NCBI GenBank assembly: GCA_016235445.1
Contig: JACRLB010000032.1
Coordinates: 10,373-74,372 of the forward strand
DNA: 64,000 bases
Origin: Chloroflexota bacterium
Lineage (GTDB): Bacteria; Chloroflexota; Anaerolineae; Anaerolineales; Villigracilaceae
Direction of reading: 5' to 3'
The notes beneath the pieces are model-generated. The model had not been told where the DNA came from and made no database searches. It worked only from the letters and a program-made list of their open reading frames with translations. Positions 2,262-60,068 of this stretch are shown here, piece by piece (position 1 is the first letter of the stretch; every line of letters starts with the position of its first letter). Made by a program: the position numbers and the translations under genes.

Positions 2262-2418
2262 GAGAGCGTTTCTTAAGTTCTTATCGCCTTCTTTTTGTAC
2301 ACGGATTTTCACGGAAAAGACGGAAAAGAGCGGCTTTTTTTATTGTTTCTTCCGTGAATTTCAGTACGCGAAGCATCCGTGCTGTCCATGTCCCAAAAAA
2401 GAGTTAAGAAATAGTCTC
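2262..2418. mobile_element. MITE-like element with IS5/IS1031-like ends
   Basis: Imperfect TIRs gagagcgtttcttaa / ttaagaaatagtctc, TTA on both flanks, internal 9-nt-periodic palindrome. Confidence 0.55.
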
Positions 2419-2559
2419 TTAGCCGCGAATTGCGTGAATTCCTGCTAATTTTTTCTCTACCGTACATGCAAATAAAGGCCTCCTTTTCCCTCACAGATTC
2501 CCGATTCGCCGAAAATATCTTTAGGGTTTCGTGTAAGGCAGAGAATTGAAAATTAGGGA

Positions 2560-2619
2560 AAATATTTATGATATTTATCTAATATATTGACAAGAAGATA
2601 CCGGGCAGTTATACTGCCC
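2560..2619 (+). promoter_or_regulatory. sigma70 promoter of sufR with two candidate operators
   Basis: TTGACA (2587-2592), 17 bp, TATACT (2610-2615). Palindrome AAATAT-N5-ATATTT at 2560-2576. GGGCAGT-tat-ACTGCCC (2603-2619) overlaps the -10. Confidence 0.8.
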
Positions 2620-2622
2620 AGT

Positions 2623-3249
2623 ATGAAATCTACGCGAGATAAAATTTTACAGACTTTACTGCGAAAACCACGCTCAACCATTAACGATCTCGCCGAAGCA
2701 GTCGGCATTAATCCCATATCCGTGCGCCATCACCTCACCAACCTCCAAATGGAGGGGCTTGTGGAAGGACAGGAAGAGCGCCATGGAGTGGGACGCCCGC
2801 GCCTGGTATATCTCCTCACCGATGAAGGCATGGAGCACTTCCCCACCCGCTACATGAAATTGACTACACGACTACTTTCTCAGATGAAGGAAACCATGCC
2901 GGGGCCGGTCGTGGCTAAATTATTCAACCAGATCGCTGAAGACCTGGCCAGCGAATATACCGAGGATATGAAAAATCTGAGTATGGAAGAACGCCTTGAC
3001 TTTGTCAAAGAAATGCTGGCGCAGGAAGGCTTCACCGTAGAATGGGAGAAAAAGGGCGGGCAGTATCATATCCACGAAATCTCCTGTCCATACTATCAGA
3101 TCGGCGTGGCGCATCCCGAAGTCTGCACCGTGGATCAGACCCTGATCTCAAAAATGCTCGCCCTGCCTGCCAACAAGGTGCAATGTATTTTGGATGGCGG
3201 CGCGCATTGCACCTATGTTGTACAGCCAGCGGAAGTAAAGAGCAAGTAA
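2623..3249 (+). CDS. sufR: SufR-like HTH transcriptional regulator with C-terminal Cys (Fe-S) motif
   Basis: N-terminal wHTH (VRHHLTNL, GVGRPRLVYLLT). C-terminal CPY-x10-C and CILDGGAHC. Followed by sufT. ATG 2623 preferred over TTG 2587, which is the -35 box. Confidence 0.75.
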   Translation: MKSTRDKILQTLLRKPRSTINDLAEAVGINPISVRHHLTNLQMEGLVEGQEERHGVGRPRLVYLLTDEGMEHFPTRYMKLTTRLLSQMKETMPGPVVAKLFNQIAEDLASEYTEDMKNLSMEERLDFVKEMLAQEGFTVEWEKKGGQYHIHEISCPYYQIGVAHPEVCTVDQTLISKMLALPANKVQCILDGGAHCTYVVQPAEVKSK

Positions 3250-3274
3250 ACACCCTTATTAACCCAGAGGAACT

Positions 3275-3619
3275 ATGAGCGAAGAAATTAAAGAAATTCA
3301 GTGGAGCATTCACACCACCCACCCTGAGATCGTGCAACAGGCTCGCGCAAGTCTGTCAGAGGTGGTAGACCCCGAAATTGGAATGACCATCATCCAGTTA
3401 GGTTTGATCCGAAACGTCGAAATTGAAAACGGCGTGGGGCATGTCAAGATGATCCTCACAACGCCCTTTTGCCCTTATGGCCCTGCCATGATCGAAATGA
3501 CCAAAGCCAAAGCCACCGAAGGACTGAACATGCCCGTCACCATAGACATGGGCATGGAAATGTGGGATTTCTCCATGATGGAAGACCCCTCCGCGCTGGA
3601 TTGGGGAATGTACGCGTAA
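3275..3619 (+). CDS. sufT: Metal-sulfur cluster assembly factor (DUF59/SufT/MIP18 family)
   Basis: VVDPEIG-x-IIQLGLI and MILTTPFCP motifs. Confidence 0.85.
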   Translation: MSEEIKEIQWSIHTTHPEIVQQARASLSEVVDPEIGMTIIQLGLIRNVEIENGVGHVKMILTTPFCPYGPAMIEMTKAKATEGLNMPVTIDMGMEMWDFSMMEDPSALDWGMYA

Positions 3620-3751: not shown

Positions 3752-4399
3752 TCATTCTCCCTTTTTCCAGTGCATGGAATGTGGTTGTTCGCCTTCTGCG
3801 AAACCTGAAATGATGATCAAGGCGTTGGTCACATTCGTGCCAGGGTTTCGCCAGCGATGGCTTAGCTTGGACGCGAACAAAAGACTATCACCCGCTTCGA
3901 GGTGGAATAATTCCTTCTCTACATAATAATCCAACTGGCCGCGCAGGCAGAAGACAAACTCATGGCCGGTATGCACCATGCTGTGCGGGCCGCTGGAAGA
4001 GCCGCTTTCCAGCGTAAGCATGAACGGCTCCACCCTTCCTATAAACTGCTCCCCACCCAAAGCCTCGAACACGCCCCGCGTAAATGACATGCGCGTGCGC
4101 TCGTCCGATTTCAAGAACACCATCTGCTTCTTTTCAGTTTCCACACCGAAGAACGCAGTGATCGAAACCCCCAAAGCGTCTGCCAATTTATAGAGTGTGC
4201 TCACAGAAGGCGAGGTTTTCCCGCGTTCAATCATCGAAAGCGCGTTGGCCGACAAACCGCTTTTCGTGCCGAGCGTGCGCATGGAAATCCCCCGCGCCTC
4301 GCGCAGTTCACGCAAACGGGACGCCACATCCACTGATACTGCTTCTCGCTGAAATGCTTCCATTTGTTCCTCCGGGCTTGGGGGGTTGCAAATATTCAT
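3752..4399 (-). CDS. XRE-family HTH regulator with C-terminal cupin domain
   Basis: LRELREARG...LSMIERGKTSPSVSTLYKLA HTH and HTGHEFVFCLRG...H cupin motif. Exact start uncertain. Confidence 0.88.
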   Translation of the reverse strand: MNICNPPSPEEQMEAFQREAVSVDVASRLRELREARGISMRTLGTKSGLSANALSMIERGKTSPSVSTLYKLADALGVSITAFFGVETEKKQMVFLKSDERTRMSFTRGVFEALGGEQFIGRVEPFMLTLESGSSSGPHSMVHTGHEFVFCLRGQLDYYVEKELFHLEAGDSLLFASKLSHRWRNPGTNVTNALIIISGFAEGEQPHSMHWKKGE

Positions 4400-4538
4400 C
4401 CAAAGCCTGCCAAATTATACCCAATTTTTATATGACATTAAACGAAACTTAAGATGACACAATCCACTATTGTACAAACTGTCACAATATTATGATGGGG
4501 GTGCAAATATTCGTTTATTCACATATAAGCAGGCTCAC

Positions 4539-4886
4539 ATGGTCACCCCTACCCTAAAACAGGAAATCACCCAACTCGAAGCCAACTTCTGTGCGGCGCT
4601 TTCAGACCCGAATCGCCTTCTCATTTTATACTCCCTCAGCGAAGGGCCGCGCAACGTAACCGAACTTGGGATTGAACTCGGGTTGAACCAGCCCACTACA
4701 TCGCGCCATCTCAAAGTCCTGCGTGAGCGGGGGCTGGTACACACCGTCCGCACAGGCACAATCATCACCTATCATCTTTCCGATCCAAGACTCATTCAGG
4801 CGCTTGATTTATTACGAAACGCGATGCGCGACAGACTCGCACACCAGGCAAACCTGATTAATGAAGTTTCACAGGAGAATGTATGA
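4539..4886 (+). CDS. ArsR/SmtB-family transcriptional regulator
   Basis: ALSDPNRLLIL...NQPTTSRHLKVLRERGLV. Stop overlaps the start of the next gene (atga). ATG 4539 preferred over TTG 4470. Confidence 0.9.
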   Translation: MVTPTLKQEITQLEANFCAALSDPNRLLILYSLSEGPRNVTELGIELGLNQPTTSRHLKVLRERGLVHTVRTGTIITYHLSDPRLIQALDLLRNAMRDRLAHQANLINEVSQENV

Positions 4887-6319
4887 AAAACCGCTTCCCT
4901 TCATGGACCTTGGGACTGCTCGGCATAATTTTGCTGATTCTCGTCCCGGTCATTTACTACCTACCCCGCGCCCAATCCAGGAACGACCCTGCGGCTTACC
5001 TGCCCACAAAAGCCGTGCATGTGGATCACAAAGACATCGTCAACGGCGAATTCAAAACAGGGCAGGAAGTAACCCGCGCCTGCCTCGAATGCCACGAAGA
5101 CGCCGCAACGGAATTCATGAAAACCACACACTGGACATGGGAATCAAAACCCTTCGATGTCCCCTGGCGCGACGAAGATGTGACCATCGGCAAAGCCAAC
5201 CAGATCAACAACTTCTGCATCGGCTCACAAGGCAATGAAGTGACCTGCACCGCCTGTCATGCAGGCTACGGCTGGGAGCAGGGGCGCGAAGCCCAGCAAG
5301 CCAACCCCGAAAATGTGGACTGCCTCGCCTGCCATGCCGACCTCGGCTCATACACAAAGAGCAAATACGGCAACCCCGCCGAAGGCGTTGACCTGCTCGC
5401 CGCGGCGCAAAGCGTGCGCGCTCCCACCCGCGAGAACTGCGGAAAATGCCACTTCGATGGCGGCGGCGGCAACGGCGTCAAACACGGCGACCTCGACGAG
5501 AGCCTGTACTTCCCTGGCGAATCACTCGATGTTCACATGGGCGGCGAAGCAAACATGCAATGCACCGACTGCCATTGGACGGAAAACCACCAAATTCTCG
5601 GGCGCATGATCGCAGATAATTACACCATCGACCCCGAAGAACAAGTTTCCTGCGAACAATGTCACGTCGACCAACAGCACAAAGATGAACGCATCAACAC
5701 CCACCTTGCATCCGTTGCCTGCCAGACCTGCCACATTCCCGCAATCGCTCTCGAAGACCCCACCAAAGTCACTTGGGACTGGTCACAAGCGGGTCAGGAA
5801 GGACGCGAGGACGACCACTTCACCTACCTCAAGATCAAAGGCGAATTCGTCTACGAAAAGAACTTCACGCCCACCTATCTTTGGTTCAACGGCAATAACG
5901 AATATCGCTACATCCTCGGCGACCCGCTCGGCAAAGACGGCATCACCTACATCAACAAGCCTGCTGGAAATATCGAAGATGTAACTGCAAAGATATTCCC
6001 GTTCAAACTGCACATCGCCAAACAACCCTACGATGTAAAAAATAATTACCTGCTTCAACCCGTCACATCTGGCAAGGATGGATTCTGGACCACCTTCGAT
6101 TGGAACAGCGCCTTCGAACTCGCCGTACCCATCACAGGCCTCGCTTACAGCGGCGAATACGGCTTCACTGAAACCTACATGTACTGGGCAACCACCCACA
6201 TGGTGCAACCCGCAGACAAAGCCTTGCAATGCGAATCATGTCACGGCGAAAACGGCCGCATGGACTGGGCCGCCCTCGGTTACCCTGGCGACCCAATTGA
6301 ATGGGGCGGAAGAAAATAA
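4883..6319 (+). CDS. otr: Octaheme c-type cytochrome, tetrathionate reductase (OTR) family
   Basis: Eight CxxCH motifs (CLECH, CTACH, CLACH, CGKCH, CTDCH, CEQCH, CQTCH, CESCH), OTR signatures IGK-x5-NNFC and GGGG-x3-KHGDL, N-terminal membrane anchor/signal. Confidence 0.88.
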   Translation: MKNRFPSWTLGLLGIILLILVPVIYYLPRAQSRNDPAAYLPTKAVHVDHKDIVNGEFKTGQEVTRACLECHEDAATEFMKTTHWTWESKPFDVPWRDEDVTIGKANQINNFCIGSQGNEVTCTACHAGYGWEQGREAQQANPENVDCLACHADLGSYTKSKYGNPAEGVDLLAAAQSVRAPTRENCGKCHFDGGGGNGVKHGDLDESLYFPGESLDVHMGGEANMQCTDCHWTENHQILGRMIADNYTIDPEEQVSCEQCHVDQQHKDERINTHLASVACQTCHIPAIALEDPTKVTWDWSQAGQEGREDDHFTYLKIKGEFVYEKNFTPTYLWFNGNNEYRYILGDPLGKDGITYINKPAGNIEDVTAKIFPFKLHIAKQPYDVKNNYLLQPVTSGKDGFWTTFDWNSAFELAVPITGLAYSGEYGFTETYMYWATTHMVQPADKALQCESCHGENGRMDWAALGYPGDPIEWGGRK

Positions 6320-6366
6320 ATGGTAATTAGTAATCGGTAATTACCATTTACCAATTACTAATCCAA

Positions 6367-9075
6367 ATGGAACCGACTATGAAACGATACTCCCTCACAA
6401 TCATTGGACTTCTCCTCCTCGCCCTCGCCATTGGATTTGGCCCCGCTCTCGCCTCGTCCGCGCCTGCTCCAGCCTCACAGGCTTCGACACTACACCCGAA
6501 CTTTATCCTGCTCGATGCAGACGGCGCGAACGTGCTCGAAAGCGGCAGTGCCGTCTCCACCATGCAAACCTGCGGACAATGCCACGACACCGATTTCATC
6601 GCCTCGCACGCATTTCACTCCGACCTGGGATTGGCTGATTATGCCGCATCGAAAGAATCATGGGATGCAAGCACAGGCACGTTTGGTCAATGGAATCCGC
6701 TCACCTATCGCTACCTCTCGCAAGACGGCGATGAACGGCTGGACCTCTCCACCGCTGAATGGTTAATGCTGAACGGCGAAAGAGTCGTCGGCGGCGGACC
6801 AGCTACAACGTCACGCAATGATGCGCCGCTCGCAGATGTAAAAGTCAGCAGGGAAAATCCCGAAACGTCCATCTTGAAAAATGGAAGCCCCACAACCTGG
6901 AACTGGGACAAATCCGGCACGATGGAAATGAACTGCTTCCTCTGCCACCTTGAAACTCCCAACACCGAAGCGCGCGCTGAAGCCATTCACGCAGGCGAGT
7001 TTGGCAATGCCAACACCGCCACTTTGATTGGCTTGAATGTGGTCAATAAATCCAGCGAAGGCTGGGTATGGAATCCTGAATCCTTCAACGAGAATGGCGA
7101 ACTCAAAAGCGAGTTCATCGGCATTCAAGACCCCACCAATGCAAACTGCGCCACCTGTCACGGTGAAGTTCACCCCGAAACGGAAGAGCCGCTCACCCTC
7201 AACGCCTGTGATTTGGATTATCCACAAACTGCCACAACAGGCCAGGTCGTCAGCGGACAGCGCATCAACGAGTCTGGCGTAAACCTGACAGACAAAAATA
7301 ATATCGAGCGTTCATGGGATATTCACGCCGAACGACAACTGCAATGCACAGATTGTCACTACGCTTTGAACAACCCTGCACATGCCAGCGAATTGCAAAG
7401 CAATAATCCCGAGCATCTCGTCTACGACCCGCGCTCGCTGGAGATTGGTGAATATCTCGAAAGACCAGACCATAACTTCGCGCGCGGCGAAAGCGCACAA
7501 TTCAACGTGGCTCCCGAATACAAGGGCACCATGCGCCGCTGTGAAAACTGCCACGACGCCAGCAAGGGACATGCAAACTGGCTTCCATACATCGGAACGC
7601 ACATGGACGCAGTCGCCTGCGAAACCTGCCACATCCCGCAGATGTACGCGCCTGCCATCCAAACCTACGACTGGACTGTCATCACGACAAGCGGTACAGC
7701 GGTTGAAACCTGCCGCGGCGTGGATGGCGACCCGAACGCAGTGACATCTCTGGTGACTGGCTACGAGCCTGTTCTGCTCAACCGCACGAACATCGACGGC
7801 GACACTTTGCTCGCGCCGTACAATCTGATTACGTCCTTCTACTGGGTGTACGATGACGCCAATGGAAACAAACGCCCCGTCCGCCTGGTTGATCTCGAAG
7901 CCGCGTATCTCGAAGATGGAAAATATGCGGCAGACATCGCCGCCGCATTTGACTCAAACGGCGACGGCAAACTCGCCTCGAATGAATTAACGCTTGACTC
8001 TGCCGCAAAGACCGATGTGGTCAAAACAAAACTTGCCGCGCTGGGTTTGAACAACCTGCGCATCGAAGGCGTGGTACAGCCGTACAGCATCAACCACAAC
8101 GTCACACGCGGAGACAGCGCCATCAATGACTGCAAAGCCTGTCACAACGAAAACTCACGCATGTCACAGCCGATCAAACTCACAGACTCTGCGCCCGTCC
8201 TGCCTATTTTTGACGCGGCTAACAACGTCAACAACAGCGGCGAATTTGTCACGGACGCGGATGGCGCGTTGTATTACCAGCCCATGCCCGCCGAAGACAA
8301 CTTGTATGTCTTCGGCTCCAGCCGCGTCAATTGGGTGGATTGGTTCGGCGCGATTGCATTTGCGGGTTCGCTCTTAGGTGTGATCGGGCATGGGACGCTG
8401 AGATATCTCTCGTCGCAGAAACAGCCCAAGGGTCAGAAAAGAACCGAGCGGATTTATATGTACGACACGTATCGCCGCTTCTGGCATTGGTTACAGACCT
8501 CGTCCATCGTCATCCTGTTGTTTACAGGCTTGATCATTCACAGACCCGATATTTTCGGTGCGTTCTCGTTCCGCGGTGTGGTGACGGTGCATAACGTGGT
8601 GGCGGTCATCCTTGTGATCAACGCGGCGTTGTCGTTGTTCTATCACATCACGACGGACAGAATTCGGGAGTTCATTCCGCATCCGTATGGGTTTTTCGAT
8701 GATGCGATCGTCCAGGCCAGGTATTACATCGGTGGAATATTCAAGGGCGAAGCTCACCCCTTCGAAAAACTGCCAACCAGCCGCATGAATCCCATTCAGA
8801 AAATGACCTACTTCATGATCTTGAACGTGCTGTTGCCTTTGCAAACCATCACAGGCGCGTTGATGTGGAGCGTGCAAAAGCGGCCTGAGTTCGCAAATGC
8901 GCTCGGCGGACTGCCTTTCCTTGCGCCGTTCCATTCGCTCGTGGCGTGGATGTTTGGCACGTTCATCCTCGTGCATGTGTATATGACCACCACTGGCGCA
9001 ACTCCGCTCGAAGCGATGCGCGGGATGGTGACGGGGTATGAAGAAGTGGAAGTGCATGAGAGCAAGGATGAATGA
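6367..9075 (+). CDS. Heptaheme cytochrome c fused to a C-terminal cytochrome b (FdnI/PhsC/HupC-like) membrane domain
   Basis: Signal peptide; seven CxxCH motifs; C-terminal TM domain with RFWHW, TVHN, NPIQK, FHS and VHVY His motifs. Start may be 6379 (MKRYSL). Confidence 0.85.
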   Translation: MEPTMKRYSLTIIGLLLLALAIGFGPALASSAPAPASQASTLHPNFILLDADGANVLESGSAVSTMQTCGQCHDTDFIASHAFHSDLGLADYAASKESWDASTGTFGQWNPLTYRYLSQDGDERLDLSTAEWLMLNGERVVGGGPATTSRNDAPLADVKVSRENPETSILKNGSPTTWNWDKSGTMEMNCFLCHLETPNTEARAEAIHAGEFGNANTATLIGLNVVNKSSEGWVWNPESFNENGELKSEFIGIQDPTNANCATCHGEVHPETEEPLTLNACDLDYPQTATTGQVVSGQRINESGVNLTDKNNIERSWDIHAERQLQCTDCHYALNNPAHASELQSNNPEHLVYDPRSLEIGEYLERPDHNFARGESAQFNVAPEYKGTMRRCENCHDASKGHANWLPYIGTHMDAVACETCHIPQMYAPAIQTYDWTVITTSGTAVETCRGVDGDPNAVTSLVTGYEPVLLNRTNIDGDTLLAPYNLITSFYWVYDDANGNKRPVRLVDLEAAYLEDGKYAADIAAAFDSNGDGKLASNELTLDSAAKTDVVKTKLAALGLNNLRIEGVVQPYSINHNVTRGDSAINDCKACHNENSRMSQPIKLTDSAPVLPIFDAANNVNNSGEFVTDADGALYYQPMPAEDNLYVFGSSRVNWVDWFGAIAFAGSLLGVIGHGTLRYLSSQKQPKGQKRTERIYMYDTYRRFWHWLQTSSIVILLFTGLIIHRPDIFGAFSFRGVVTVHNVVAVILVINAALSLFYHITTDRIREFIPHPYGFFDDAIVQARYYIGGIFKGEAHPFEKLPTSRMNPIQKMTYFMILNVLLPLQTITGALMWSVQKRPEFANALGGLPFLAPFHSLVAWMFGTFILVHVYMTTTGATPLEAMRGMVTGYEEVEVHESKDE

Positions 9076-44218: not shown

Positions 44219-46366
44219 CTACGGCACGTAATACTCAATCACCAACTGAGGCCTGTTCACGGCCCCCGCATTCCCGCTGTAGATCTTGAGGAAATTGGCA
44301 ACAGCGTTGTTGTTGTCATCCAGCTTGAAGCGCAGGCGCATCTGCGTCAGCCCTCCGCCCGTGCCAAGTTTATTGATAAAAGTTTTTGCAGGCGTCAGAT
44401 TCAAGTTGTACCAGCCTGCGGTCAATGCGGGGGATGTCGGTCCAACGGTCTTGCTGGCAGTGGCATTGAAATCCCCAAGCGCGAGTGGCGCAGTGCCGAA
44501 CATGCCTTTCTTGATGTCCACCACAAAGCCCTGGAACATGCCGACTGGGTTTCCACCGCCAACCACGCCCTGTCGCTTGAGTTTGAGGGTGACTTTGGTA
44601 ACGATGGCGTTATCAGGCAGGGTGGATGTGTTGAATGACAGGATGGAGCGATACTGTCTTTTAGCGGCATCATCTCCCAGATTAAGAGTCGAGGCGGCGC
44701 TGTTCATCGTTCCGCCCACGCCGCTGGTTTCCGTCGATTCGAGGATAAAGCCATCTTGAGCGCCGGTTGATTTGAAGGTAGTGATTATTGTCTTTTCGAT
44801 ATCATAGGTTTCGCCACTGGTAAAGGGCAGGCCGCTCAATGGATTACTTGACAGGTCAGTGATGGTAGCGGAGGCAGGCACATCGAGACGGATGGTGCCG
44901 TTGCCTGTGCCGGTGGAAACTGTCACAGTGTAGGAACTGCCCGTGCCGCTGACCCCGCTCACGGCGGCGCCAGAGACGCCGCTTGTCGTCAGGGTGAAAT
45001 CGCCCGTATCCACTCCCATTACAGATTCGGAGAAGGTGACGGTGAAATCTACGCTGGTGAGTGCGGTGGGGTTGGGGCTGGCAAGGGCGCTCGCAGTTAC
45101 AATAATTGGTTGAATCCCAAAGCGGGCAATATGATCCGCGTCCGCATTCCCGCCCGCGTTGGAGAAGTCGCCGCCTGCGTACACATCCGTTCCACTGATG
45201 GTAATGGCATAAACCCAGTTATTCAACGGCGTTGAACCCAGCGCAGACCATGCCGAGCCGCTAAATTTGGCGATGAAATCCGCGTTTGCATCCCCGCCTG
45301 CATTAGCGAAGGATCCGCCTGCGTATACATCTGTCCCGCTGATGGCGATGGCGTAGACAAAATTATCCAATGGTGTTGAACCCAGCGCAGACCATGCCGA
45401 GCCGTTGAATTTGGCGATGTAATCGGCATTCATATCCCCGCCCGCATCCGTGAAAGTCCCGCCCGCGTACACATCTGTCCCGCTGACGGCGATGGCATTG
45501 ACCGATTCATTCAACGACGTCGCACCAAGCGCAGACCAGGCAGAGCCGTCGAATTTGGCGATGAAATCGGCATTCACATCCCCACCCGCATTGAAGAAGG
45601 TTCCACCCGCGTATACATCTGTCCCACTGACGGCGATGGCGTTAACCTGCTGATTCAATGGCGCTGAACCGAGCGCAGACCATGCCGAGCCGTTCCATTT
45701 GGCAATGTAATCCGCGTTCGCATCCCCGCCTGCATCGAGGAATCTCCCGCCCACGTACACGTCTGTTCCGCTGATACCGATGGCATGGACAGCATTGCCC
45801 AACGGCACCGCGCCCAGCGCAGACCATGCCGAGCCGTCGAATTTGGCAATGTAATCCGCATTCGCATCCCCGCCTGCATTCGTAAACCAACCGCCCGCGT
45901 ACACATCCGTCCCACTGACGGCGATGGCAGTGACATAGCTATTCAACGGCGTCGCGCCCAGCGCAGACCAGGCAGAGCCGTCCCATTTGGCAATGTAGTC
46001 GGCGTTCGCATCATAGCCTGCATCGAGAAAGTAGCCGCCCGCGTACACATCCGTCCCGCTGATGAAAATGGTAATTACCGAGGACATCAGCCCGGTTCCC
46101 AGAGCATTCCAACTAATGGTGGTAGCCAGCGGCTTGAAAGTTGGCCCAAGAACGGGGTCGAGGCTGACATCGAAATTGGTAATATCGAGTTCGCCGCTGT
46201 AGCCTGTGCTCAAATCCAGCGTGCCGTCTGTGTTGAGCAGGCGCTCCACGGGCAGGGCTGCGTTACTCTCCGCGGCCTGGGCAGGCGTGGCTCTGCCAAG
46301 CAATGAAGCCAGCAAGACAAAGACAAACAAAAAATTAAATAGAAACTTTGAAAAACGGAATTTCAT
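44219..46366 (-). CDS. Secreted protein: seven 48-aa beta-propeller-like repeats + Ig-like + shared C-terminal domain
   Basis: Signal peptide near-identical to gene 41373; seven repeats ALG-x-PL-x3-V-x-AIAxSGTDVYAGGxF; ends RPQLVIEYYVP. Confidence 0.88.
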   Translation of the reverse strand: MKFRFSKFLFNFLFVFVLLASLLGRATPAQAAESNAALPVERLLNTDGTLDLSTGYSGELDITNFDVSLDPVLGPTFKPLATTISWNALGTGLMSSVITIFISGTDVYAGGYFLDAGYDANADYIAKWDGSAWSALGATPLNSYVTAIAVSGTDVYAGGWFTNAGGDANADYIAKFDGSAWSALGAVPLGNAVHAIGISGTDVYVGGRFLDAGGDANADYIAKWNGSAWSALGSAPLNQQVNAIAVSGTDVYAGGTFFNAGGDVNADFIAKFDGSAWSALGATSLNESVNAIAVSGTDVYAGGTFTDAGGDMNADYIAKFNGSAWSALGSTPLDNFVYAIAISGTDVYAGGSFANAGGDANADFIAKFSGSAWSALGSTPLNNWVYAITISGTDVYAGGDFSNAGGNADADHIARFGIQPIIVTASALASPNPTALTSVDFTVTFSESVMGVDTGDFTLTTSGVSGAAVSGVSGTGSSYTVTVSTGTGNGTIRLDVPASATITDLSSNPLSGLPFTSGETYDIEKTIITTFKSTGAQDGFILESTETSGVGGTMNSAASTLNLGDDAAKRQYRSILSFNTSTLPDNAIVTKVTLKLKRQGVVGGGNPVGMFQGFVVDIKKGMFGTAPLALGDFNATASKTVGPTSPALTAGWYNLNLTPAKTFINKLGTGGGLTQMRLRFKLDDNNNAVANFLKIYSGNAGAVNRPQLVIEYYVP

Positions 46367-47384
46367 AAACATTTCTCCTTGTAGGTTGGATATACCAGAA
46401 TGGAAAGACTGCAAGAGATTTATCCCACGCCTTCGTTTCAAGTATATTGGAAGGTTTGAACAAGAGCTATTTTATGAGAATTATCTGGATTAGACAACCA
46501 TCCAAAAGGGGGAAAATTCAGCCCCCGCATCCTGCTGGATGTGAGGGCTGATTCTGTTTTCTGCATCAATTCCCCCGGCTGATAGTTTTTCAATTCGCCG
46601 TCAGCTTCCTACGGCACGTAATACTCGATCACCAACTGAGGCCTGTTCACGGCCCCCGCATTCCCGCTGTAGATCTTGAGGAAATTGGCAACAGCGTTGT
46701 TGTTGTCATCCAGCTTGAAGCGCAGGCGGATTTGCGTCAACCCGCCGCCCGTGCCAAGTTTATTGATAAAGGTTTTTGCAGGCGTCAGATTCAGGTTGTA
46801 CCAGCCTGCGGTCAATGCGGGGGAGGATGGCCCGACGGTCTTGCTGGCGGTGGCATTGAAATCTCCGAGCGCAAGAGGTGCAGTGCCGAACATGCCTTTC
46901 TTGATATCTGTCACAAAGCCCTGGAACATACCGACTGGGTTTCCACCGCCAACCACGCCCTGTCGCTTGAGTTTGAGGGTGACTTTGGTAACGATGGCGT
47001 TATCAGGCAGGGTGGCAGTGTTGAATGACAGGATGGAGCGATACTGTCTTTTAGCGGCATCATCTCCCAGATTAAGAGTCGAGGCGGTGGCGTTCATCGT
47101 CCCGCCCACGCCGCTGGTTTCCGTCGATTCGAGGATAAAGCCATCTTGAGCGCCAGTTGATTTGAAGGTAGTGATTATTGTCTTTTCGATATCATAGGTT
47201 TCGCCACTGGTAAAGGGCAGGCCGCTCAATGGATTACTTGACAGGTCAGTGATGGTGGCGGAGACAGGCACATCGAGGCGGATGGTGCCGTTGCCTGTGC
47301 CGGTGGAAACTGTCACAGTGTAGGAACTGCCCGTGCCGCTGACCCCGCTCACGGCGGCGCCAGAGACGCCGCTTGTCGTCAGGG
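46125..47384. repeat. Direct repeat copy B
   Basis: Matches 43588-44994 (offset 2537 at the low end, 2390 at the high end). Confidence 0.9.
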
Positions 47385-52509: not shown

Positions 52510-52624
52510 TGATGTATCCGAAAAATCAACGTAGAGTTGAAAAGACAAGGGGTAAATTAATCTCACGCGGCATTTTCCGAAAATATAGTGACTCTGAGCT
52601 AGGTTTAATCCCCCCCGAATATAC

Positions 52625-52672
52625 TAGAAAAATATCATAAATATTGACAAATCCCCCCAGCCCTGCTATAAT
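52625..52672 (+). promoter_or_regulatory. sigma70 promoter of the suf operon with a candidate SufR operator overlapping the -35
   Basis: TTGACA (52644), 17 bp, TATAAT (52667); 52625-52645 is the reverse complement (20/21) of 2561-2581. Confidence 0.82.
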
Positions 52673-52740
52673 GCCGCCGACCTGCAAAATACTGCATAAA
52701 AACGCCACTTCGTGGCTTGAATTCAGGAGTATACCCAAGA

Positions 52741-53520
52741 ATGTCGCAACTTGAGATAAAAAACCTACATGTGAGTATCGAAGACAAGGAAATTCTAAAA
52801 GGACTTTCACTCACGATCAACCAGGGTGAAATCCACGCAATCATGGGGCCGAACGGCACGGGCAAATCCACCCTGGCTTACACCCTCATGGGACACCCCA
52901 ATTACACCGTCACCGAAGGTGAGATCATCTTCAAAGGAAAAAACGTTCTCGAGCTGGAGCCAGACGAACGCTCCCGCGCGGGGATTTTCCTCGCCTTTCA
53001 ATACCCCGTCGCCATCCCCGGCGTCACCGTGGCCAACTTCCTGCGCACCGCCATCAACGCCCGCCGCCGCGCCGTCAACCCCGAAGACAAAGGCATGCCC
53101 ATCCCCGAATTCCGCAAGATGCTCAAGGAAAAGATGGACACCCTCAAGATGGATCACGCCTTTGCTGGCCGCTATCTAAACGACGGCTTCTCCGGCGGCG
53201 AAAAGAAACGCGCCGAAATTTTGCAGATGGCCGCCCTCAAGCCAGAGATCGCCATTTTGGATGAGACAGATTCAGGCTTGGATATTGATGCGCTCCGCAT
53301 CGTCTCGGAAGGCGTCAACGCTCTTTCCGGTCCCGAGCTTGGGGTGCTGGTCATCACGCATTATCAACGCCTGTTGAATTACATCAAACCGAATTTCGTC
53401 CATATCATGCTGGATGGCCGCATCGTTGAATCAGGCGCCGCCGACCTGGCCCTCCACCTCGAAGACCAGGGCTACGATTGGGTGCGTGAAAAGTATGACG
53501 CAGTAGCTGAAGAAAGCTAA
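52741..53520 (+). CDS. sufC: Fe-S cluster assembly ATPase SufC
   Basis: [38 protein letters not shown]. Confidence 0.97.
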
Positions 53521-53580
53521 GACTTAAACCTTAGTGACCCTTCATTCCCTTAATGGTGAAAGAATCCCCGGAGAATTCTC

Positions 53581-56109
53581 ATGACCGAAGAAACCAAACC
53601 TGACGACACCAAACTCCTCGAAGAGATTGGTGATTATAAATATGGTTTTCACGACCGCGACGATAATTACGTGTTCAAATCCGAACGTGGATTGAGCCGC
53701 GAAGTCGTTGAAAATATTTCCCGCATGAAAAACGAACCTCAATGGATGCTCGAATTCCGCCTCAAGGCGTATGAGCATTACATCAACCGCCCCATGCCAA
53801 ACTGGGGACCAACCCTCGACGAAATCGAATTCGACAATATTTTCTACTACGTCAAGCCGACCGAAAAAAGTGAAAAAAACTGGGACAACGTCCCCGATGA
53901 TATCAAGAACACCTTCAATAAATTAGGCATCCCCGAAGCCGAGCAAAAGTTTTTGGCAGGCGTAGGCGCACAGTACGAATCCGAAATGGTGTATCACTCC
54001 ATTTTAGAGCATCTTGAAAAGCAGGGCGTCATCTTCCTGTCCATTGAAGATGGCCTCAAACAATACCCTGATCTCTTCAAAGAATATTTCGGCACGGTCA
54101 TCCCCATTGAAGATAACAAATTCGCCGCGCTCAACTCTGCCGTTTGGTCTGGAGGTTCGTTCGTGTACGTGCCAAAAGGCGTCAAAGTGGACCTGCCCTT
54201 GCAGGCTTACTTCCGCTTGAACACCGCCAACGTCGGCCAGTTCGAACGCACCCTCATCATCGTGGATGAAGGCGCATCTGTGCATTATGTCGAAGGATGT
54301 TTCCTGGAAGGCGCACGGGTACGGATTCGCAATGGTGAAAAGCCAATTGAAGAAATCGAAGTTGGCGATGAAGTGATGACGCACCAGGGCCGTTGGCGCA
54401 ATGTTTATCACACCATGAAGCGAGCTTACCATGGAAATATTTTCAACATCAAAATCTATGGCGATAGTGGACGTGAGTTGAAAGTTACCGCAGAGCACCC
54501 TTTATTGGTTGCCTCCCGCCAAAGACAAAACGAACGCAACAAGGAGTTTCAACCCGTTTGGAAATTTGCTGAAAACGTTCAAGTCGGTGATTACCTTGTT
54601 ATTCCAATTCCTCAACCAGTTGCCGAACCTGCTCTTGCTCACAGCGTTACTGTCCCCCTGGGGCGCGGACGACATGCTCCAGTTGACCGCGAAGTGAATT
54701 TGCCTTACGAACCAGATTTCTTCCGCCTGCTTGGCTATTACTTTGCCGAAGGCCATGTGGACAACGAGCATTACATCTCATTATCTTTCCATGTGGATGA
54801 GACAGAATACCTTGCCGATGCGAAATCACTCATTGAACGATACTTTGGCAAATCACCCATTGAAAATACTCCGCGTCAAAACGGACAAACGCTGGTTCTT
54901 TCCTCCACCGAAGTTGCCCGAACTTTCGCGCGTGAATTCGGCTCGAATGTTTACGAGAAACACATTCCTGAATGGGTTTCCAGCGCCGATCCGGGTTTGC
55001 TTGCCGAACTTGTAAAGGGGATGTGGTGCGGCGACGGGAGTTACGACGCCAGAAAGAATATGTTCCGGTACAACACCGTCTCCGCCGACCTTGCGTATGC
55101 TTTCCGTGATGCTTGTTTGCGTCTGGGTATTGCCGCATCTGTGAATATGCAGGAAAGAGCCCTGCCTCGTAAAAATATTTATGCTGTTGTAATTCCCTCG
55201 CCTTTCAATCCGCAGTTTGGTGAAATTGTCGGCGTGGATGCGCCAGCGGGCGACCTCAGCGGCTCTCCCTTCTCGATGGATGAAAACTTCCTCTATGTTC
55301 CCATTAAAGAGATCACCGTTGAAGAAATGGAAACAGAAGTTTTCAACTTCTCTGTGGAAGAAGATGAGTCGTATGTCGCCGAAGGGGTTGTCTCACATAA
55401 CTGCACCGCTCCTCAGTACACCACCAACTCCTTCCATAGCGGCGTGATCGAGATTATCGTCAAGAAGGGTGCGCGCTCCCGTTATTCCACCATTCAAAAC
55501 TGGTCCACCAACGTCTTCAACCTCGTCACCCAGCGCGCAAAAGTCTTTGCAAACGCCTCCCACGAATGGGTAGATGCGAACCTCGGTTCCAAACTCACCA
55601 TGAAATATCCATCCTGCTATTTGATGGAACCCGGCGCGCATGGCGAAATGCTTTCCATGGCATTCGCAGGCCCCGGCCAAACTCAGGACGCAGGCTCAAA
55701 GATGATGCACTTCGCGCCAAACACCACCAGCAAGATCGTTTCCAAATCCATCAGCAAGAGCGGCGGACGCGCCTCCTATCGCGGCATGGTCAAAGTGTAC
55801 AAAGGCTCGAAGGGCGTCAAATCCAACGTGGTTTGCGACGCGCTTTTGCTCGACCCCAAATCCCGCTCCGACACCTACCCCACCATCGAGATCGACGAAG
55901 ACGATGTAACCATCGGCCACGAAGCCTCCGTCAGCAAAGTGGGCGAAGAACAACTCTTCTACTTAATGTCCCGCGGCCTCAGCGAAGAGGAAGCCACCAC
56001 CATGGTAGTCTCTGGCTTCATCGAACCCCTCGTCAAAGAACTGCCGATGGAATATGCCGTTGAAATGAATCGTCTGATTCAATTACAGATGGAAGGCTCA
56101 ATAGGATAA
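53581..56109 (+). CDS. sufB: Fe-S scaffold SufB containing an intein
   Basis: SufB motifs (GVGAQYESE, GQFERTLI, VHYVEG/CTAP, YSTIQNWS, EYAVE) interrupted by 368 aa. Confidence 0.96.
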   Translation: MTEETKPDDTKLLEEIGDYKYGFHDRDDNYVFKSERGLSREVVENISRMKNEPQWMLEFRLKAYEHYINRPMPNWGPTLDEIEFDNIFYYVKPTEKSEKNWDNVPDDIKNTFNKLGIPEAEQKFLAGVGAQYESEMVYHSILEHLEKQGVIFLSIEDGLKQYPDLFKEYFGTVIPIEDNKFAALNSAVWSGGSFVYVPKGVKVDLPLQAYFRLNTANVGQFERTLIIVDEGASVHYVEGCFLEGARVRIRNGEKPIEEIEVGDEVMTHQGRWRNVYHTMKRAYHGNIFNIKIYGDSGRELKVTAEHPLLVASRQRQNERNKEFQPVWKFAENVQVGDYLVIPIPQPVAEPALAHSVTVPLGRGRHAPVDREVNLPYEPDFFRLLGYYFAEGHVDNEHYISLSFHVDETEYLADAKSLIERYFGKSPIENTPRQNGQTLVLSSTEVARTFAREFGSNVYEKHIPEWVSSADPGLLAELVKGMWCGDGSYDARKNMFRYNTVSADLAYAFRDACLRLGIAASVNMQERALPRKNIYAVVIPSPFNPQFGEIVGVDAPAGDLSGSPFSMDENFLYVPIKEITVEEMETEVFNFSVEEDESYVAEGVVSHNCTAPQYTTNSFHSGVIEIIVKKGARSRYSTIQNWSTNVFNLVTQRAKVFANASHEWVDANLGSKLTMKYPSCYLMEPGAHGEMLSMAFAGPGQTQDAGSKMMHFAPNTTSKIVSKSISKSGGRASYRGMVKVYKGSKGVKSNVVCDALLLDPKSRSDTYPTIEIDEDDVTIGHEASVSKVGEEQLFYLMSRGLSEEEATTMVVSGFIEPLVKELPMEYAVEMNRLIQLQMEGSIG
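54298..55401 (+). mobile_element. Intein with LAGLIDADG homing endonuclease (368 aa)
   Basis: N-terminal CFLEG, block B TAEHP, LAGLIDADG-like RLLGYYFAEG and ELVKGMWCGDG, block F VFNFSVEEDESY, C-terminal SHN followed by +1 Cys. Confidence 0.95.
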
Positions 56110-56115
56110 TTCGCC

Positions 56116-56179
56116 CTGAGCGGAAGAGCCGAGTGCAAGCCGAGGCTTTGAAGTCGAAGGGCGCTTCGACCACGCTCAG
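56116..56179. repeat. REP-like ctgagcg...gtcgaag/cttcgac...cgctcag element
   Basis: Nested inverted arms in the sufB-sufD spacer. Confidence 0.65.
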
Positions 56180-56200
56180 CGCGAAATCTGGATAAAAACT

Positions 56201-57541
56201 ATGCAAGAGAAACCAAAAGTATCTGTCAATCGAACGCGACGTGAAACTGCCGCCAAGGAATTTACCTTCACACAGGCGGATATTCCCTCGTCGAGCAACG
56301 GACTCGCCTCTTTCCGCGCCTCCGCCTGGGACGCTTTCAAGAAGCATTCCCTCCCCGTCACCACAGACGAGGCCTGGCGCCGCACTGATCTGCGTTTGCT
56401 CCCCGCGTCTGATTTCAACCTTCCCAAGGAAGGGGCTTTCGAAGATCTGCCCGCTGTCCCCGAATATTTGCTCAAGTCATTGACGGGCGATCAGCACGGC
56501 CCTCCGCAAATCACCCTGCTCCCCGGCGGCTCCCAAATTCACTTGGATGAAGTTCTCGCTAAAAAAGGCGTGGTCTTCACCGACTTCCACAGCGCTGAAA
56601 AGAATCACGCCGACCTGCTCGCAAAGTTGATCGGACAGATTGTGAAACCCGAAGACGGCAAGTTTGCCGCGCTGGCTTCGGCTCTGGCTCAAAATGGAAT
56701 TTTGCTTTATGTTCCCAAGAATGTGCAAGTGGAATACCCGCTTCACTCTGTCTTGTGGGGTCCCGGTACTGACCTTGCCCATTTCTCACACCTGATTGTC
56801 TACGTGGAAGATGGCGCATCTGTCACCTACGTCCACGAAGCGGCTTCGCCCGATGAAGTGGGCCATGCCATGCACGCAGGCGTTGTCGAAATTTACGTTG
56901 GCAAAGATGCCAACCTGCGCTTCGTTGAATTGCAATCCTGGGGTCGGCATGTCTGGAACTTCTCACACGAGCGCGCCCGTGTGGAACGCGGCGGCAATTT
57001 GGACTGGATCTTCGGCGCGGTCGGCTCACGCCTCACCAAGAACTTCTCAGACCTAGACCTCGCTGGCGAAGGCGCACTGGGACGAATGTCTGGTTTCTAT
57101 TTCACAGACGGAACCCAGCACCTCGACCACGATACCCAGCAAAATCATCTTGCTCCGCACACCACCAGCGACCTGCTTTTCAAAGGCGCACTAAAAGGAA
57201 AGAGCCGTTCCGTCTGGCAGGGCATGATCTACGTTGCCCCTGGCGCGCAAAAAACGGACGGCTACCAGGCCAACCGCAATCTTGTCCTCGACGAACAATC
57301 GCGCGCAGACTCAATCCCGGGTTTGGAAATTCTTGCAGACGATGTGCGCTGTACACACGGCGCAACGGTTGGTAAACTAGAGGCGGAGCCGCTCTTCTAT
57401 TTGAAGTCACGCGGCATTCCCCAGCGCGAAGCGGAGCAATTGGTTGTGGAAGGCTTCTTCGACCCGATCATGCAGCGCATCCCATTTGAAGGTGTGCGCG
57501 AGAGATTTCAGCAGGCCATTCAAGATAAGTTATCGAAGTAG
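56201..57541 (+). CDS. sufD: Fe-S cluster assembly protein SufD
   Basis: EAWRRTDL, LFKGAL...SVWQG, KTDGYQANRNL, PGLEILADDVRCTHGATVG. Confidence 0.95.
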   Translation: MQEKPKVSVNRTRRETAAKEFTFTQADIPSSSNGLASFRASAWDAFKKHSLPVTTDEAWRRTDLRLLPASDFNLPKEGAFEDLPAVPEYLLKSLTGDQHGPPQITLLPGGSQIHLDEVLAKKGVVFTDFHSAEKNHADLLAKLIGQIVKPEDGKFAALASALAQNGILLYVPKNVQVEYPLHSVLWGPGTDLAHFSHLIVYVEDGASVTYVHEAASPDEVGHAMHAGVVEIYVGKDANLRFVELQSWGRHVWNFSHERARVERGGNLDWIFGAVGSRLTKNFSDLDLAGEGALGRMSGFYFTDGTQHLDHDTQQNHLAPHTTSDLLFKGALKGKSRSVWQGMIYVAPGAQKTDGYQANRNLVLDEQSRADSIPGLEILADDVRCTHGATVGKLEAEPLFYLKSRGIPQREAEQLVVEGFFDPIMQRIPFEGVRERFQQAIQDKLSK

Positions 57542-57547
57542 TTTATT

Positions 57548-57580
57548 AGACCTGACAGGTCTTTGGGATCTGTCAAGTCT
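57548..57580. repeat. REP-like agacctgacaggtct palindrome pair
   Basis: agacctgacaggtct...tctgtcaagtct. Confidence 0.6.
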
Positions 57581-57679
57581 TGAAAAAATATCAGCGTGGA
57601 CAATGTTTGGGGCGTCCGATCAATTGTCCCTTAAGAATGAGGCGGAGGGCGTCTCCATTTTCAAGACAGGATGTGTGTC

Positions 57680-58306
57680 ATGATCGTAAAATCAAAAGCG
57701 AAACCCAAACCAAAGTCAAAAGCAAAAGTAAGGGCAAAGGTAACACTCAAATCCAAGGTGGCGGTAAAGGCAAAGCCTGCCAGGAAATCAACCTCCAAGC
57801 CAAAAGTGAAGGCAACTATTTTGAAAAAAAAGATTGCGAAGCCCGGCGTAAAACCCAGTTCTGGCAGTGAATTAAAAACAAAGCCGCAAGTCAGCGCGGC
57901 CGCTTCTGCGATGGCAATGGCGGTGGTGAAACCTGTGCCCCCGGTGGTCAAGCGCACATTGACCCCGCTGGTGGACCGCCACAAACCGATGAAACGTTCA
58001 CTGCGCGTGAATCAATTTGCGTTCATGAAGGCGCCCGGCCTGGATCACGCTTTTGATGTGGGCGATAGCGTGGAGGTTTTTTGCGACCACGAAAAAAGCC
58101 GCGAGCGCATCCGTGGATGGGTCAGGGGCATTGTGGTGCAGGTGGATAATAAAATGGTTGCGGTGCAGTTCCGCTCGAACGTGTATCTCACCGACGGCTG
58201 GATGGTGCCTGACCGCATCCTTTGGTATCCGTTGACCTCCGAGCATATTCGCGCATTGCCGGGCAAGAAGGCGGCAGTGAAAAAAGATTTCATTCCTGAT
58301 TATTAA
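57680..58306 (+). CDS. Hypothetical protein: Lys/Ala-rich N-terminal tail + small beta-barrel-like domain
   Basis: Co-oriented within the suf operon; agga SD 8 nt before ATG 57680; globular C-terminus GDSVEVFCDH...WVRGIVVQVD. Confidence 0.7.
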   Translation: MIVKSKAKPKPKSKAKVRAKVTLKSKVAVKAKPARKSTSKPKVKATILKKKIAKPGVKPSSGSELKTKPQVSAAASAMAMAVVKPVPPVVKRTLTPLVDRHKPMKRSLRVNQFAFMKAPGLDHAFDVGDSVEVFCDHEKSRERIRGWVRGIVVQVDNKMVAVQFRSNVYLTDGWMVPDRILWYPLTSEHIRALPGKKAAVKKDFIPDY

Positions 58307-58382
58307 GATACGTAAACAAGCAGACGGGTAAACACGTATTTACCTGTCTGCTTGTTTACTTGTTTACCTGTCTACCTTTCCC

Positions 58383-59609
58383 ATGACTCTTAATGTAGAA
58401 CAAATCCGCAAAGACTTTCCCATTCTCGAGCGCGAGACGCAGAACGGCGCGCGCATTATTTATTTGGATTCCACGGCCACTTCGCAAAAGCCCGCGCAGG
58501 TGATCGAGGCGATGAATGATTATTATCGCCGCTCGAATGCGAACATCCATCGCGGCGTGCATACGCTGGCAGAGGAAGCCACATCCATGTATGAGGGCGC
58601 GCGCGAGAAGATCGCAAAATTCATCAATGCGTCGTCTTCGCGCGAGATCATTTACACGCGCAACACAACCGAATCGATTAATCTCGTTGCGTATTCATGG
58701 GCGCGCGCAAATTTGAAGGCGGGCGATCTCGTCGTTTTGACGGAGATGGAACACCACAGCAACCTCGTCCCCTGGCACATGCTGGAAGCGGAGCGGGGCA
58801 TCGAACTGGATTTCATCCCCGTGACGGAAGACGGCCTGTTGGATTTGGAAACCTACAAATCGCTTCTTGACCGCCGCCCGAAGCTGGTCTCGTTTACGCA
58901 CATGTCCAACGTCCTAGGCACGGTCAACCCCGCCGCCGAGATCATTCGTTTGGCGCATGAAGCGGGCGCAATCGTTTTAGTGGACGGGGCGCAATCCGTG
59001 CCGCATTTGACAGTGGATGTGCAGGCGCTGGATGCAGATTTCTACGCGTTCTCTGCCCATAAAATGTGCGGGCCTACGGGCATTGGCGCGTTGTATGGAA
59101 AATCGTCCCTGCTCGAGGCCATGCCCCCATTTTTGGGCGGCGGCGATATGATCAAGGAAGTGAAATTGCGTTCCTTCCGCGCGAATACCCTGCCGCATAA
59201 ATTCGAAGCGGGCACTCCCGCCATTGCAGAAGCTGTCGGCTTTGGCGCGGCTGTAGATTACCTCTCAGCCATCGGCATGGAAAGAATCGCAGAGCATGAG
59301 CGCGAGATCACCGAATATGCTTTGGATCGCCTGGAAGAAATCCCTGGCGTGAGGTTATTCGGTCCCTCTGCTGAGAAAAAAGGCGGGGTGGCGGCCTTCA
59401 CGCTGGAAGGCGTGCATCCGCATGATGTGGCGCAAATTTTAGACCGCGATGGAATTGCCGTGCGGGCGGGACATCATTGCGCCCAGCCATTGCATGAAAA
59501 ATTTGGCATCCCCGCCACGAGCCGCGCTTCGTTTTATTTGTACAACACAAAGGACGAGGTGGATATGCTGGTGAATGGGATTTATAAAGTGAAGGAAATG
59601 TTTGGATAA
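58383..59609 (+). CDS. sufS: Cysteine desulfurase SufS (group II)
   Basis: YLDSTATSQKP, NIHRG, EHHSN, DGAQSVPH, SAHKMCGP (PLP Lys), RAGHHCA (catalytic Cys). Confidence 0.97.
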   Translation: MTLNVEQIRKDFPILERETQNGARIIYLDSTATSQKPAQVIEAMNDYYRRSNANIHRGVHTLAEEATSMYEGAREKIAKFINASSSREIIYTRNTTESINLVAYSWARANLKAGDLVVLTEMEHHSNLVPWHMLEAERGIELDFIPVTEDGLLDLETYKSLLDRRPKLVSFTHMSNVLGTVNPAAEIIRLAHEAGAIVLVDGAQSVPHLTVDVQALDADFYAFSAHKMCGPTGIGALYGKSSLLEAMPPFLGGGDMIKEVKLRSFRANTLPHKFEAGTPAIAEAVGFGAAVDYLSAIGMERIAEHEREITEYALDRLEEIPGVRLFGPSAEKKGGVAAFTLEGVHPHDVAQILDRDGIAVRAGHHCAQPLHEKFGIPATSRASFYLYNTKDEVDMLVNGIYKVKEMFG

Positions 59610-59611
59610 AC

Positions 59612-59663
59612 GCAGGGGCGATCCTTGCGGTTGCCCTCGGATAGAGGCAAGCCCTATCCCTAC
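59612..59663. repeat. REP-like gcaggggcg...ccctac element
   Basis: gcaggggcgatccttgcggttgccct...ggcaagccctatccctac. Confidence 0.5.
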
Positions 59664-59672
59664 AGGAATATT

Positions 59673-60068
59673 ATGGACGATTTATATCGCGAAGTTATCA
59701 TCGAGCATTACAAGAACCCATCCTATCGCGGCAAGCTCGACCCGCACGACATTTCGTTTGCGGACAACAATCCGCTATGCGGCGACCACATCCAAATTGA
59801 CTTGCGCGTGGGTGACAACGGAATTGTGACCGAGGCGCTGTTCGACGGCCACGGCTGTGCCATTTCGCAAGCCTCTGCAGATTTGTTGATGGAATCCATC
59901 ATCGGAAAACCGCTCGAAGAAGTGAAGAAACTAAACAAGGATTCAATCCTCGAATTGCTCGGCATCGAGCTTGGTCCCGTGCGGTTGAAATGCGCCCTGC
60001 TTTCACTCAAAGTTTTGAAGGCTGGCGTCTATGGGTTGGGAGAAGCCAGTGACTCGCTGGTGGAATAA
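59673..60068 (+). CDS. sufU: SufU/IscU-family sulfur transfer/scaffold protein
   Basis: EHYKNP, NPLCGD, GCAISQAS, RLKCA. ATG 59673 follows agga. Confidence 0.93.
   Translation: MDDLYREVIIEHYKNPSYRGKLDPHDISFADNNPLCGDHIQIDLRVGDNGIVTEALFDGHGCAISQASADLLMESIIGKPLEEVKKLNKDSILELLGIELGPVRLKCALLSLKVLKAGVYGLGEASDSLVE

Follow-up and report, generated by a model that had tools for sequence, protein, structure and literature searches.

In a 64,000-nucleotide stretch of DNA from a member of the Anaerolineales (hereafter the window), the gene for a SufR-family regulator and the suf operon lie on the same strand about 50 kb apart (sufR at 2.6 kb, sufC at 52.7 kb), and closely similar A/T-rich sequences stand just upstream of both. 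This arrangement raises the question of whether the repeat is a regulatory site through which the detached regulator gene and the operon are controlled together and, if it is, which protein recognizes it. The original prediction held that a 21 bp motif shared by the two promoters is a candidate operator of SufR.

Judged by the source names of its closest homologues, the organism belongs to the Anaerolineales close to Candidatus Villigracilis (Chloroflexota). The sufR gene (2623..3249, + strand) encodes a SufR-family (COG2345-type) Fe-S transcription factor of 208 aa, and is followed by a gene for a DUF59/SufT-like Fe-S assembly protein (3275..3619, + strand; PF01883, with weak matches to TIGR02945 and TIGR03406) that is probably co-transcribed with it; the pair is kept in the related loci L001 and L003. 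Further 3′ of the pair, a syntenic block that is also kept in relatives (3752–9075) contains an XRE-cupin regulator, an ArsR/SmtB regulator and two large multihaem cytochrome genes (478 and 902 aa). The suf operon (52741..60068, + strand) consists of sufC (52741–53520), sufB (53581–56109), sufD (56201–57541), a Lys-rich Agenet-like open reading frame (57671–58306), sufS (58383–59609) and sufU (59673–60068), all on the + strand. SufB carries an intein at approximately 54301–55400 (residues ~241–607) with a LAGLIDADG homing-endonuclease domain (Pfam Hint, Intein_splicing and LAGLIDADG_3), an insertion that is missing from the sufB genes of the close relatives L001 and L005. The reading frame between sufD and sufS encodes 211 aa, is rich in Lys, Ala and Pro with a weak Agenet-like C-terminal domain, and has no NCBIfam match. 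Elsewhere in the window, identical 17-mers (CAACAGCGTTGTTGTTG) at 44299–44315 and 46689–46705, 2.4 kb apart, suggest paralogous or repeated coding sequence.

Direct reading of the sequences confirms that 2561–2581 (AATATTTATGATATTTATCTA) and the reverse complement of 52625–52645 (AATATTTATGATATTTTTCTA) are identical at 20 of 21 positions. The predicted motif is therefore present, but it is longer than 21 bp: the repeat extends over 28 bp, with 2561–2588 matching the reverse complement of 52618–52645 at 26 of 28 positions. The first candidate operator copy (2561..2588, + strand) is the 28-mer AATATTTATGATATTTATCTAATATATT and lies directly 5′ of the sufR −35 box; the second (52618..52645, − strand) reads AATATTTATGATATTTTTCTAGTATATT on the minus strand and lies 5′ of the sufC −35 box. 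These two copies are the sole matches to the 21-mer in the 64 kb window with up to three mismatches, and no match at that threshold was found in 100 dinucleotide-preserving shuffles. As the window has a G+C content of about 52%, a 21-mer with A or T at 19 positions does not correspond to background composition. A degenerate 28-mer pattern allowing three mismatches likewise finds only the two copies in the window.

The 28-mer is a pseudo-dyad about its position 14.5 (window 2574/2575) with the form AATAT-N4-GATA-N2-TATC-N4-ATATT, and the copy at sufR fits the degenerate pattern on both strands. The functional core had initially been placed in a smaller palindrome, AATAT-N5-ATATT, with the symmetry axis at its middle. 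Neither part of this proposal holds, as the axis sits at 2574/2575 instead, and the smaller palindrome is only weakly specific (four matches in the window with up to one mismatch, where 1.4 are expected) and relatives conserve its left arm less well than the rest of the block, positions 1 and 4 being the most variable of the 28. Rather, AATAT-N5-ATATT is the left outer arm paired with part of the central tract, and thus a portion of the larger pseudo-dyad. We rejected it as the core, its other matches at 16481 and 62049 scoring below 12 bits with a matrix of the 28-mer. The inner core of the block is TGATAwTTATC, and takes the form TGATAATTATC in L005 and L013.

Several features of the promoters that these blocks adjoin are relevant here. 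First, both are close to consensus: the sufR promoter (2587..2615, + strand) has a −35 box TTGACA at 2587–2592, a 17-nt spacer and a −10 box TATACT at 2610–2615 (11 of 12 consensus matches), and the sufC promoter (52644..52672, + strand) has TTGACA at 52644–52649, a 17-nt spacer and an extended −10 element, TGcTATAAT, with the −10 box at 52667–52672 (12 of 12). Second, at both genes the 28-mer reaches two bases into the −35 hexamer and covers approximately −62 to −35, so that the overlap with the sufC −35 box that had been predicted is borne out, at two bases. Third, the sufR ATG lies 7 nt past the −10 box and the sufR mRNA is therefore probably leaderless; the corresponding spacing is 6–8 nt in 94 of 95 sufR promoters (window 2610–2625 and loci L001–L164). 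At sufC the −10 box is followed by a leader of ~68 nt. Finally, boxes of known SufR systems are absent: CAAC-N6-GTTG with up to one mismatch has no match in 2300–2622 or 52510–52740, and the core ACACT-N5-TGTGA is absent from both the sufR and sufC promoters.

Other inverted repeats lie near the starts of both genes. A palindrome with a 12 bp stem, ATACCGGGCAGT-TAT-ACTGCCCAGTAT (2598–2624), brackets the sufR −10 box and takes in the ATG, and its arms change in a compensatory way in relatives (e.g. ACAGGGCAG/CTGCCCTGT and ATTGGGCAG/CTGCCCAAT). The hairpin is enriched at detached promoters, being more stable than 95% of shuffles at 20 of 48 of these and at 4 of 28 divergent ones, counts that are not independent, with many of the strong cases coming from one clade. 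As the mRNA is probably leaderless, only transcripts that read through from genes further 5′ would contain the two arms, and in these the hairpin may mask the AUG. A minority of relatives (e.g. L063, L066, L068, L072 and L076) have a sufR leader of 60–70 nt with a GGAAGG-type Shine-Dalgarno sequence. In the sufC leader, a small conserved hairpin (52699–52720, stem 52704–52716) follows an A-run (AAAAACGCCAGYAATGGCTTAA in most relatives); it is GCCAC-TTC-GTGGC in the window and has a GCCA/TGGC stem with a GNRA-like loop in relatives, some of which carry a second hairpin, ACCGC-N4-GCGGT. No Rfam family matches the window or the sufC leader.

Conservation of the block was followed in relatives at two depths. 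A scan of one genome per species, queried with a smaller alignment because the 26-sequence alignment was too diverse, yielded 80 loci with SufR proteins 77–97% identical to that of the window; sufR and sufC are directly divergent with a single copy of the block in 29 of these, sufC lies 1.3–5.4 kb off with its own copy in about 17, and the two genes are detached in the rest. The 28-mer, the −35 box and the −10 box are near-invariant in all 83 sufR promoters compared (window included), with zero conservation in the 17-nt spacer and upstream of position 1. The same is seen from the other side at sufC, where 15 detached promoters could be anchored: in every one the whole 28-mer is kept and conservation stops at its distal end; the sufC −35 and −10 boxes are conserved and the spacer is not. 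The flanks of the block are unalignable among relatives. A metagenome scan seeded with more distant homologues added 80 loci (SufR 54–86% identical to the window protein), and in each of the 68 for which 300 bp or more was available before sufR, a site lies within 450 bp upstream of the gene. Altogether the block is strictly conserved at suf promoters in about 150 related loci.

Within the DNA scanned, the block is also confined to these promoters. We built a position weight matrix from 97 sites and ran it over both strands of 895 kb comprising the window and the loci, a sample that was collected through sufR and is biased to its neighbourhood, so that a wider regulon is possible. It returned 104 matches, all of at least 30 bits, with none between 12 and 30 bits. 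All except one lie no more than 400 bp upstream of sufR (54), of sufC (17) or of both from a shared position (32), and the remaining match is at the edge of a locus where sufC would start.

Across the clades of the metagenome scan the site can still be recognized as AATATTTA-NN-ATA-W4-TC-N4-ATATT. Some of them have lost the G at position 10, with TATATTA in place of TATGATA, or TATTATA or TAGCATA, and some have three extra bases in the site or two sites in tandem at a distance of 51–62 bp; unlike this core G, the outer A/T arms are kept. The inner half-site G would therefore not define the base-specific determinants of the site, a point that counts against reading it as the SufR operator. In six loci (L101, L111, L116, L126, L128 and L160; SufR ~59–65% identical) there are two tandem operator-like sites, 37–62 bp apart, within a longer sufC-sufR intergenic region, an arrangement that recalls the two SufR sites of cyanobacteria.

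How the window came to have two copies is suggested by its close relative CP129480.1 (locus L001, SufR 92% identical). Here sufC and sufR are divergent neighbours 171 bp apart, and a single copy of the block lies between their back-to-back −35 boxes, TGTCAATATTTATGATATTTTTCTAGTATATTGACA. In this divergent layout the operator fills the 24 bp between the −35 hexamers and overlaps each by 2 bp (TGTCA[28-mer]GACA), and its dyad axis coincides with the axis of the two promoters. BLASTN aligns L001 2940–2967 to window 2561–2588 and also to 52645–52618, from which we conclude that the window copies are duplicates of one shared ancestral site and not two sites that evolved independently. The limits of homology agree: the boundary of alignment between the window and every close relative falls at 2559–2562 next to sufR and at 52617/52618 next to sufC (as in L001 and L005), coinciding with the distal edges of the 28-mer. 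The divergent single-copy layout is taken as ancestral because it predominates in the most distant clades, and the layout of the window fits a history in which the sufC/sufR pair was separated and, later or in the same event, a large inversion took place. Two orders of events are conceivable, one in which an insertion brought about the duplication and one in which a deletion removed the DNA between two direct copies. What lies between separated copies varies by lineage (a gene for a 1031-aa metallophosphatase in L005, a UbiA-like membrane protein gene in L053, and 50 kb in the window), which indicates that sufC and sufR were split more than once, each promoter keeping a full copy.

The arrangement in the window is taken to be real on the evidence of the groundwater metagenomes in which the sequence occurs, all of them DNA runs and none RNA. 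A contig of one run (X1) spans 2298–3300 without mismatch and so covers the sufR junction, and in four runs the sequence before and after the sufC junction has the same depth; the sufC junction is itself a k-mer graph node common to other strains. The exact 30-mer of the sufC operator copy (52618–52648) reaches 3–5 times the depth of adjacent sequence, and the assembly graphs branch at it, which implies that co-occurring strains in these groundwater samples carry an identical operator in a different genomic setting. Just 5′ of the sufR operator, the non-coding segment 2229–2463 has, in the source metagenomes, a k-mer depth up to 20-fold higher than that of adjacent sequence and gives rise to many branching contigs; it is a dispersed repeat or a sequence common to many strains. 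We considered this repeat as a recombination substrate for the rearrangement and rejected it, there being no second copy in the window or in any fetched locus.

Taken together, the footprint, the restriction of matches to suf promoters in 0.9 Mb and the derivation from a single ancestral site uphold the proposed tie between the detached sufR-DUF59 pair and sufCBDSU, and a role of the 28-mer as the cis-regulatory site that links them is strongly supported by these comparisons. The protein that binds it is likely to be SufR, judging from the sequence of the regulator and its association with the site. The window protein aligns with the TIGR02702 model (SufR_cyano) over model positions 1–208 of 208 (E 4e-25) and has Pfam HTH_24 and HTH_5 matches. 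The basic motif of its recognition helix is R35-H36-H37; in 26 homologues with identities as low as 35%, H37 never varies and R35 hardly does; the AT-hook G57-R58-P59 occupies invariant columns and is unchanged in all 160 loci inspected; and C155, C168 and C196 are invariant, forming C-X12-C-X27-C (spacing 13 and 28 residues). Two features of the protein count against this assignment. First, its TIGR02702 score of 88.7 bits is under the curated cut-off of 178.8 bits, for a model that was built for cyanobacteria. Second, the fourth-ligand position, three residues after the second Cys, is occupied by an Asp (Asp171), as in most homologues, and not by Glu. A search for covariation between the DNA-binding residues and operator variants was uninformative, the DNA-binding segment (INPIS[VI]RHH...GVGRP) being nearly unchanged across all clades, and a PDB sequence search returned no SufR structure and only generic ArsR, Phr and Lrp winged-helix proteins.

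What is known of the M. tuberculosis protein suggests how such a site might be read. In the cryo-EM structure of M. tuberculosis SufR on its promoter reported in a 2025 preprint, the protein is a dimer in which the GRP AT-hook of the wing enters the minor groove of flanking A/T tracts while helix α3 (RRH motif, 50-RRH-52) sits against the neighbouring major groove and shows little preference for particular bases; mutations are tolerated in the core of the site, but its A/T flanks are essential (10.64898/2025.12.26.696629). We think it probable, with good though not full confidence, that the 28 bp A/T-rich pseudo-dyad is the Anaerolineales SufR operator, at which sufCBDSU and sufR-DUF59 would be repressed when Fe-S supply is sufficient. 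One [4Fe-4S]-SufR dimer would occupy the 28-mer from −62 to −35, its pair of GRP AT-hooks inserted into the outer A/T arms through their minor grooves, and the R-H-H helices resting against the inner half-sites. So placed, it would occlude the edge of the −35 hexamer and the UP-element region, blocking sigma region 4 and α-CTD, and loss of or damage to the cluster would release it. In the ancestral divergent layout a single dimer could shut both promoters, and in the window a full copy at each promoter would preserve co-regulation and autoregulation after the split. Repression and the use of the Fe-S cluster as the signal are inferred here by analogy with cyanobacterial, Streptomyces and mycobacterial SufR. 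The candidate site abuts the −35 box from upstream and does not lie over the −10 box or the start, a position that is also used by activators and UP elements.

It seems unlikely that the block is instead the operator of another regulator, such as a Fur-family metalloregulator or other A/T-binding protein that controls suf and sufR, with SufR acting elsewhere or not at this site. The inner core TGATAwTTATC does resemble the half-sites of the Fur box, TGATAAT/ATTATCA. However, the spacing between the inner arms is 3 bp shorter than that of a 7-1-7 Fur box, and the distant clades keep the outer A/T arms and not the core G. Other bacteria commonly regulate suf operons by iron through Fur, as a 2021 review mentions, but a global iron regulator should have many targets, and no further site is found in 895 kb of related DNA or in the 64 kb window. 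The co-occurrence of the site with sufR in all 68 distant loci, its length of 28 bp and its outer A/T arms fit the SufR footprint instead.

Still more improbable is that the block represents promoter architecture only, an UP-element-like A/T tract that boosts two strong promoters by way of the α-CTD of RNA polymerase with no dedicated factor. The block is almost pure A/T, it lies at −35 to −62 where UP elements are found, and both promoters are near consensus. An UP element does not account, however, for conservation base by base that is as strict as that of the −35 and −10 hexamers and extends to the C at position 19 and to the G at position 10, which is mostly kept, nor for the dyad symmetry of the block, its presence at no other promoter in 0.9 Mb, or the fact that each promoter, once separated, has retained the full block at its distal side. 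The UP-element and SufR roles need not exclude each other, as AT-hooks and α-CTD could compete for the same minor grooves. A third alternative, that rearrangement left the repeat behind as a neutral scar or that assembly produced it artificially at a short repeat, is scarcely credible, for although De Bruijn contigs of the source runs break at 52618–52648, a 30-mer common to co-occurring strains, the copies differ at 2 of 28 positions, the X1 contig and the equal depths in four runs carry across the junctions, many other species have detached sufR or sufC promoters with the same block in unrelated flanks, and a neutral scar would have decayed like those flanks.

A bolder form of the SufR reading can be entertained, tentatively and with considerable doubt. 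As no G/C core survives across the clades, the operator may be read almost wholly through A/T-tract shape and AT-hooks; it might then double as the UP-element region of the back-to-back promoters, with one dimer competing with RNA polymerase for the same minor grooves, and be so indispensable that the exact 28 bp footprint was duplicated in several independent rearrangements. Such footprint-exact duplication could result from very strong selection or from breaks delimited by bound protein.

Autoregulated repression of suf by SufR is already known, and JGI gives some of the homologues found here the name 'suf operon transcriptional repressor'. What appears to be new is the Anaerolineales operator, its all-A/T character and its repeated footprint-exact duplication upon separation of regulator and operon. 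A 2021 review describes SufR in cyanobacteria and actinobacteria only, suf regulation beyond these groups is essentially undescribed, and our literature search found no paper linking SufR with Chloroflexota, in whose abundant wastewater and groundwater members SUF appears to be the main route of Fe-S assembly. The 28-mer provides a precise candidate operator for a third phylum and, being all A/T, lends itself naturally to testing the AT-hook mode of recognition recently proposed for SufR-like factors. It also illustrates cleanly how selection can keep a regulator and an operon under joint control after their divergent pair has been broken up, and is a specific marker with which promoters predicted to be SufR-controlled can be annotated in Anaerolineales metagenome-assembled genomes.

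Comparison with known SufR systems shows both likenesses and differences. The window protein resembles M. tuberculosis SufR (Rv1460) as a [4Fe-4S]-type COG2345 regulator that is linked to suf and has R-x-H in α3, a GRP AT-hook and C-X12-C-X27-C. Linkage to suf takes the form of divergence from sufC in about 30 species and a distance of 1.3–5.4 kb in about 17 more, and in the window, where the gene is detached, of the shared operator. The cluster of the M. tuberculosis protein is held by C179, C192, E195 and C220; a metal-binding residue is found at the E195 position in more than 96% of the family, and the substitution E195D abolishes the cluster and inactivates the protein (10.64898/2025.12.26.696629), and the window protein has Asp171 at this position. 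The two operators share a length of ~27–28 bp, dyad symmetry and outer A/T arms ~22–23 bp apart, the M. tuberculosis footprint holding the 27 bp inverted repeat ATTTTGTCACACT-N5-TGTGAAAAT (PMC8371249). They differ in that the M. tuberculosis core half-sites are ACACT/TGTGA, while the Anaerolineales site is A/T almost throughout. Gene order differs as well, sufR being the first gene of the suf operon in M. tuberculosis (Rv1460-Rv1466) and divergent or detached in the Anaerolineales, and binding is demonstrated for the M. tuberculosis protein where for the Anaerolineales protein it is predicted.

The cyanobacterial system is closer in layout and more distant in operator sequence. Holo-SufR represses suf and itself (2021 review), and the regulator of Synechocystis (sll0088) does so from one intergenic region, as the Anaerolineales protein would; its divergent sufR/suf layout is ancestral here and seen in about 30 relatives, and the window protein matches TIGR02702 over its full length. 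The differences are that the Synechocystis sufR-sufBCDS intergenic region has CAAC-N6-GTTG boxes, of which neither window promoter contains any, and that the cyanobacterial gene order is sufBCDS, while the Anaerolineales operon starts with sufC and includes sufU and the window pair is 50 kb apart. SufR of Streptomyces avermitilis and ArnR of C. glutamicum are likewise COG2345 proteins for which AT-hook plus HTH reading of ~30 bp sites with two A/T tracts has been proposed, although the former uses CAAC-N6-GTTG and the latter controls nitrate respiration genes and not suf. The original description of the operator as unlike the cyanobacterial box thus stands for its sequence, but its size and outer A/T arms match the 27 bp M. 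tuberculosis site and the AT-hook mode of recognition reported in 2025. The candidate Anaerolineales operator is thus new in sequence and agrees with the geometry of SufR binding.
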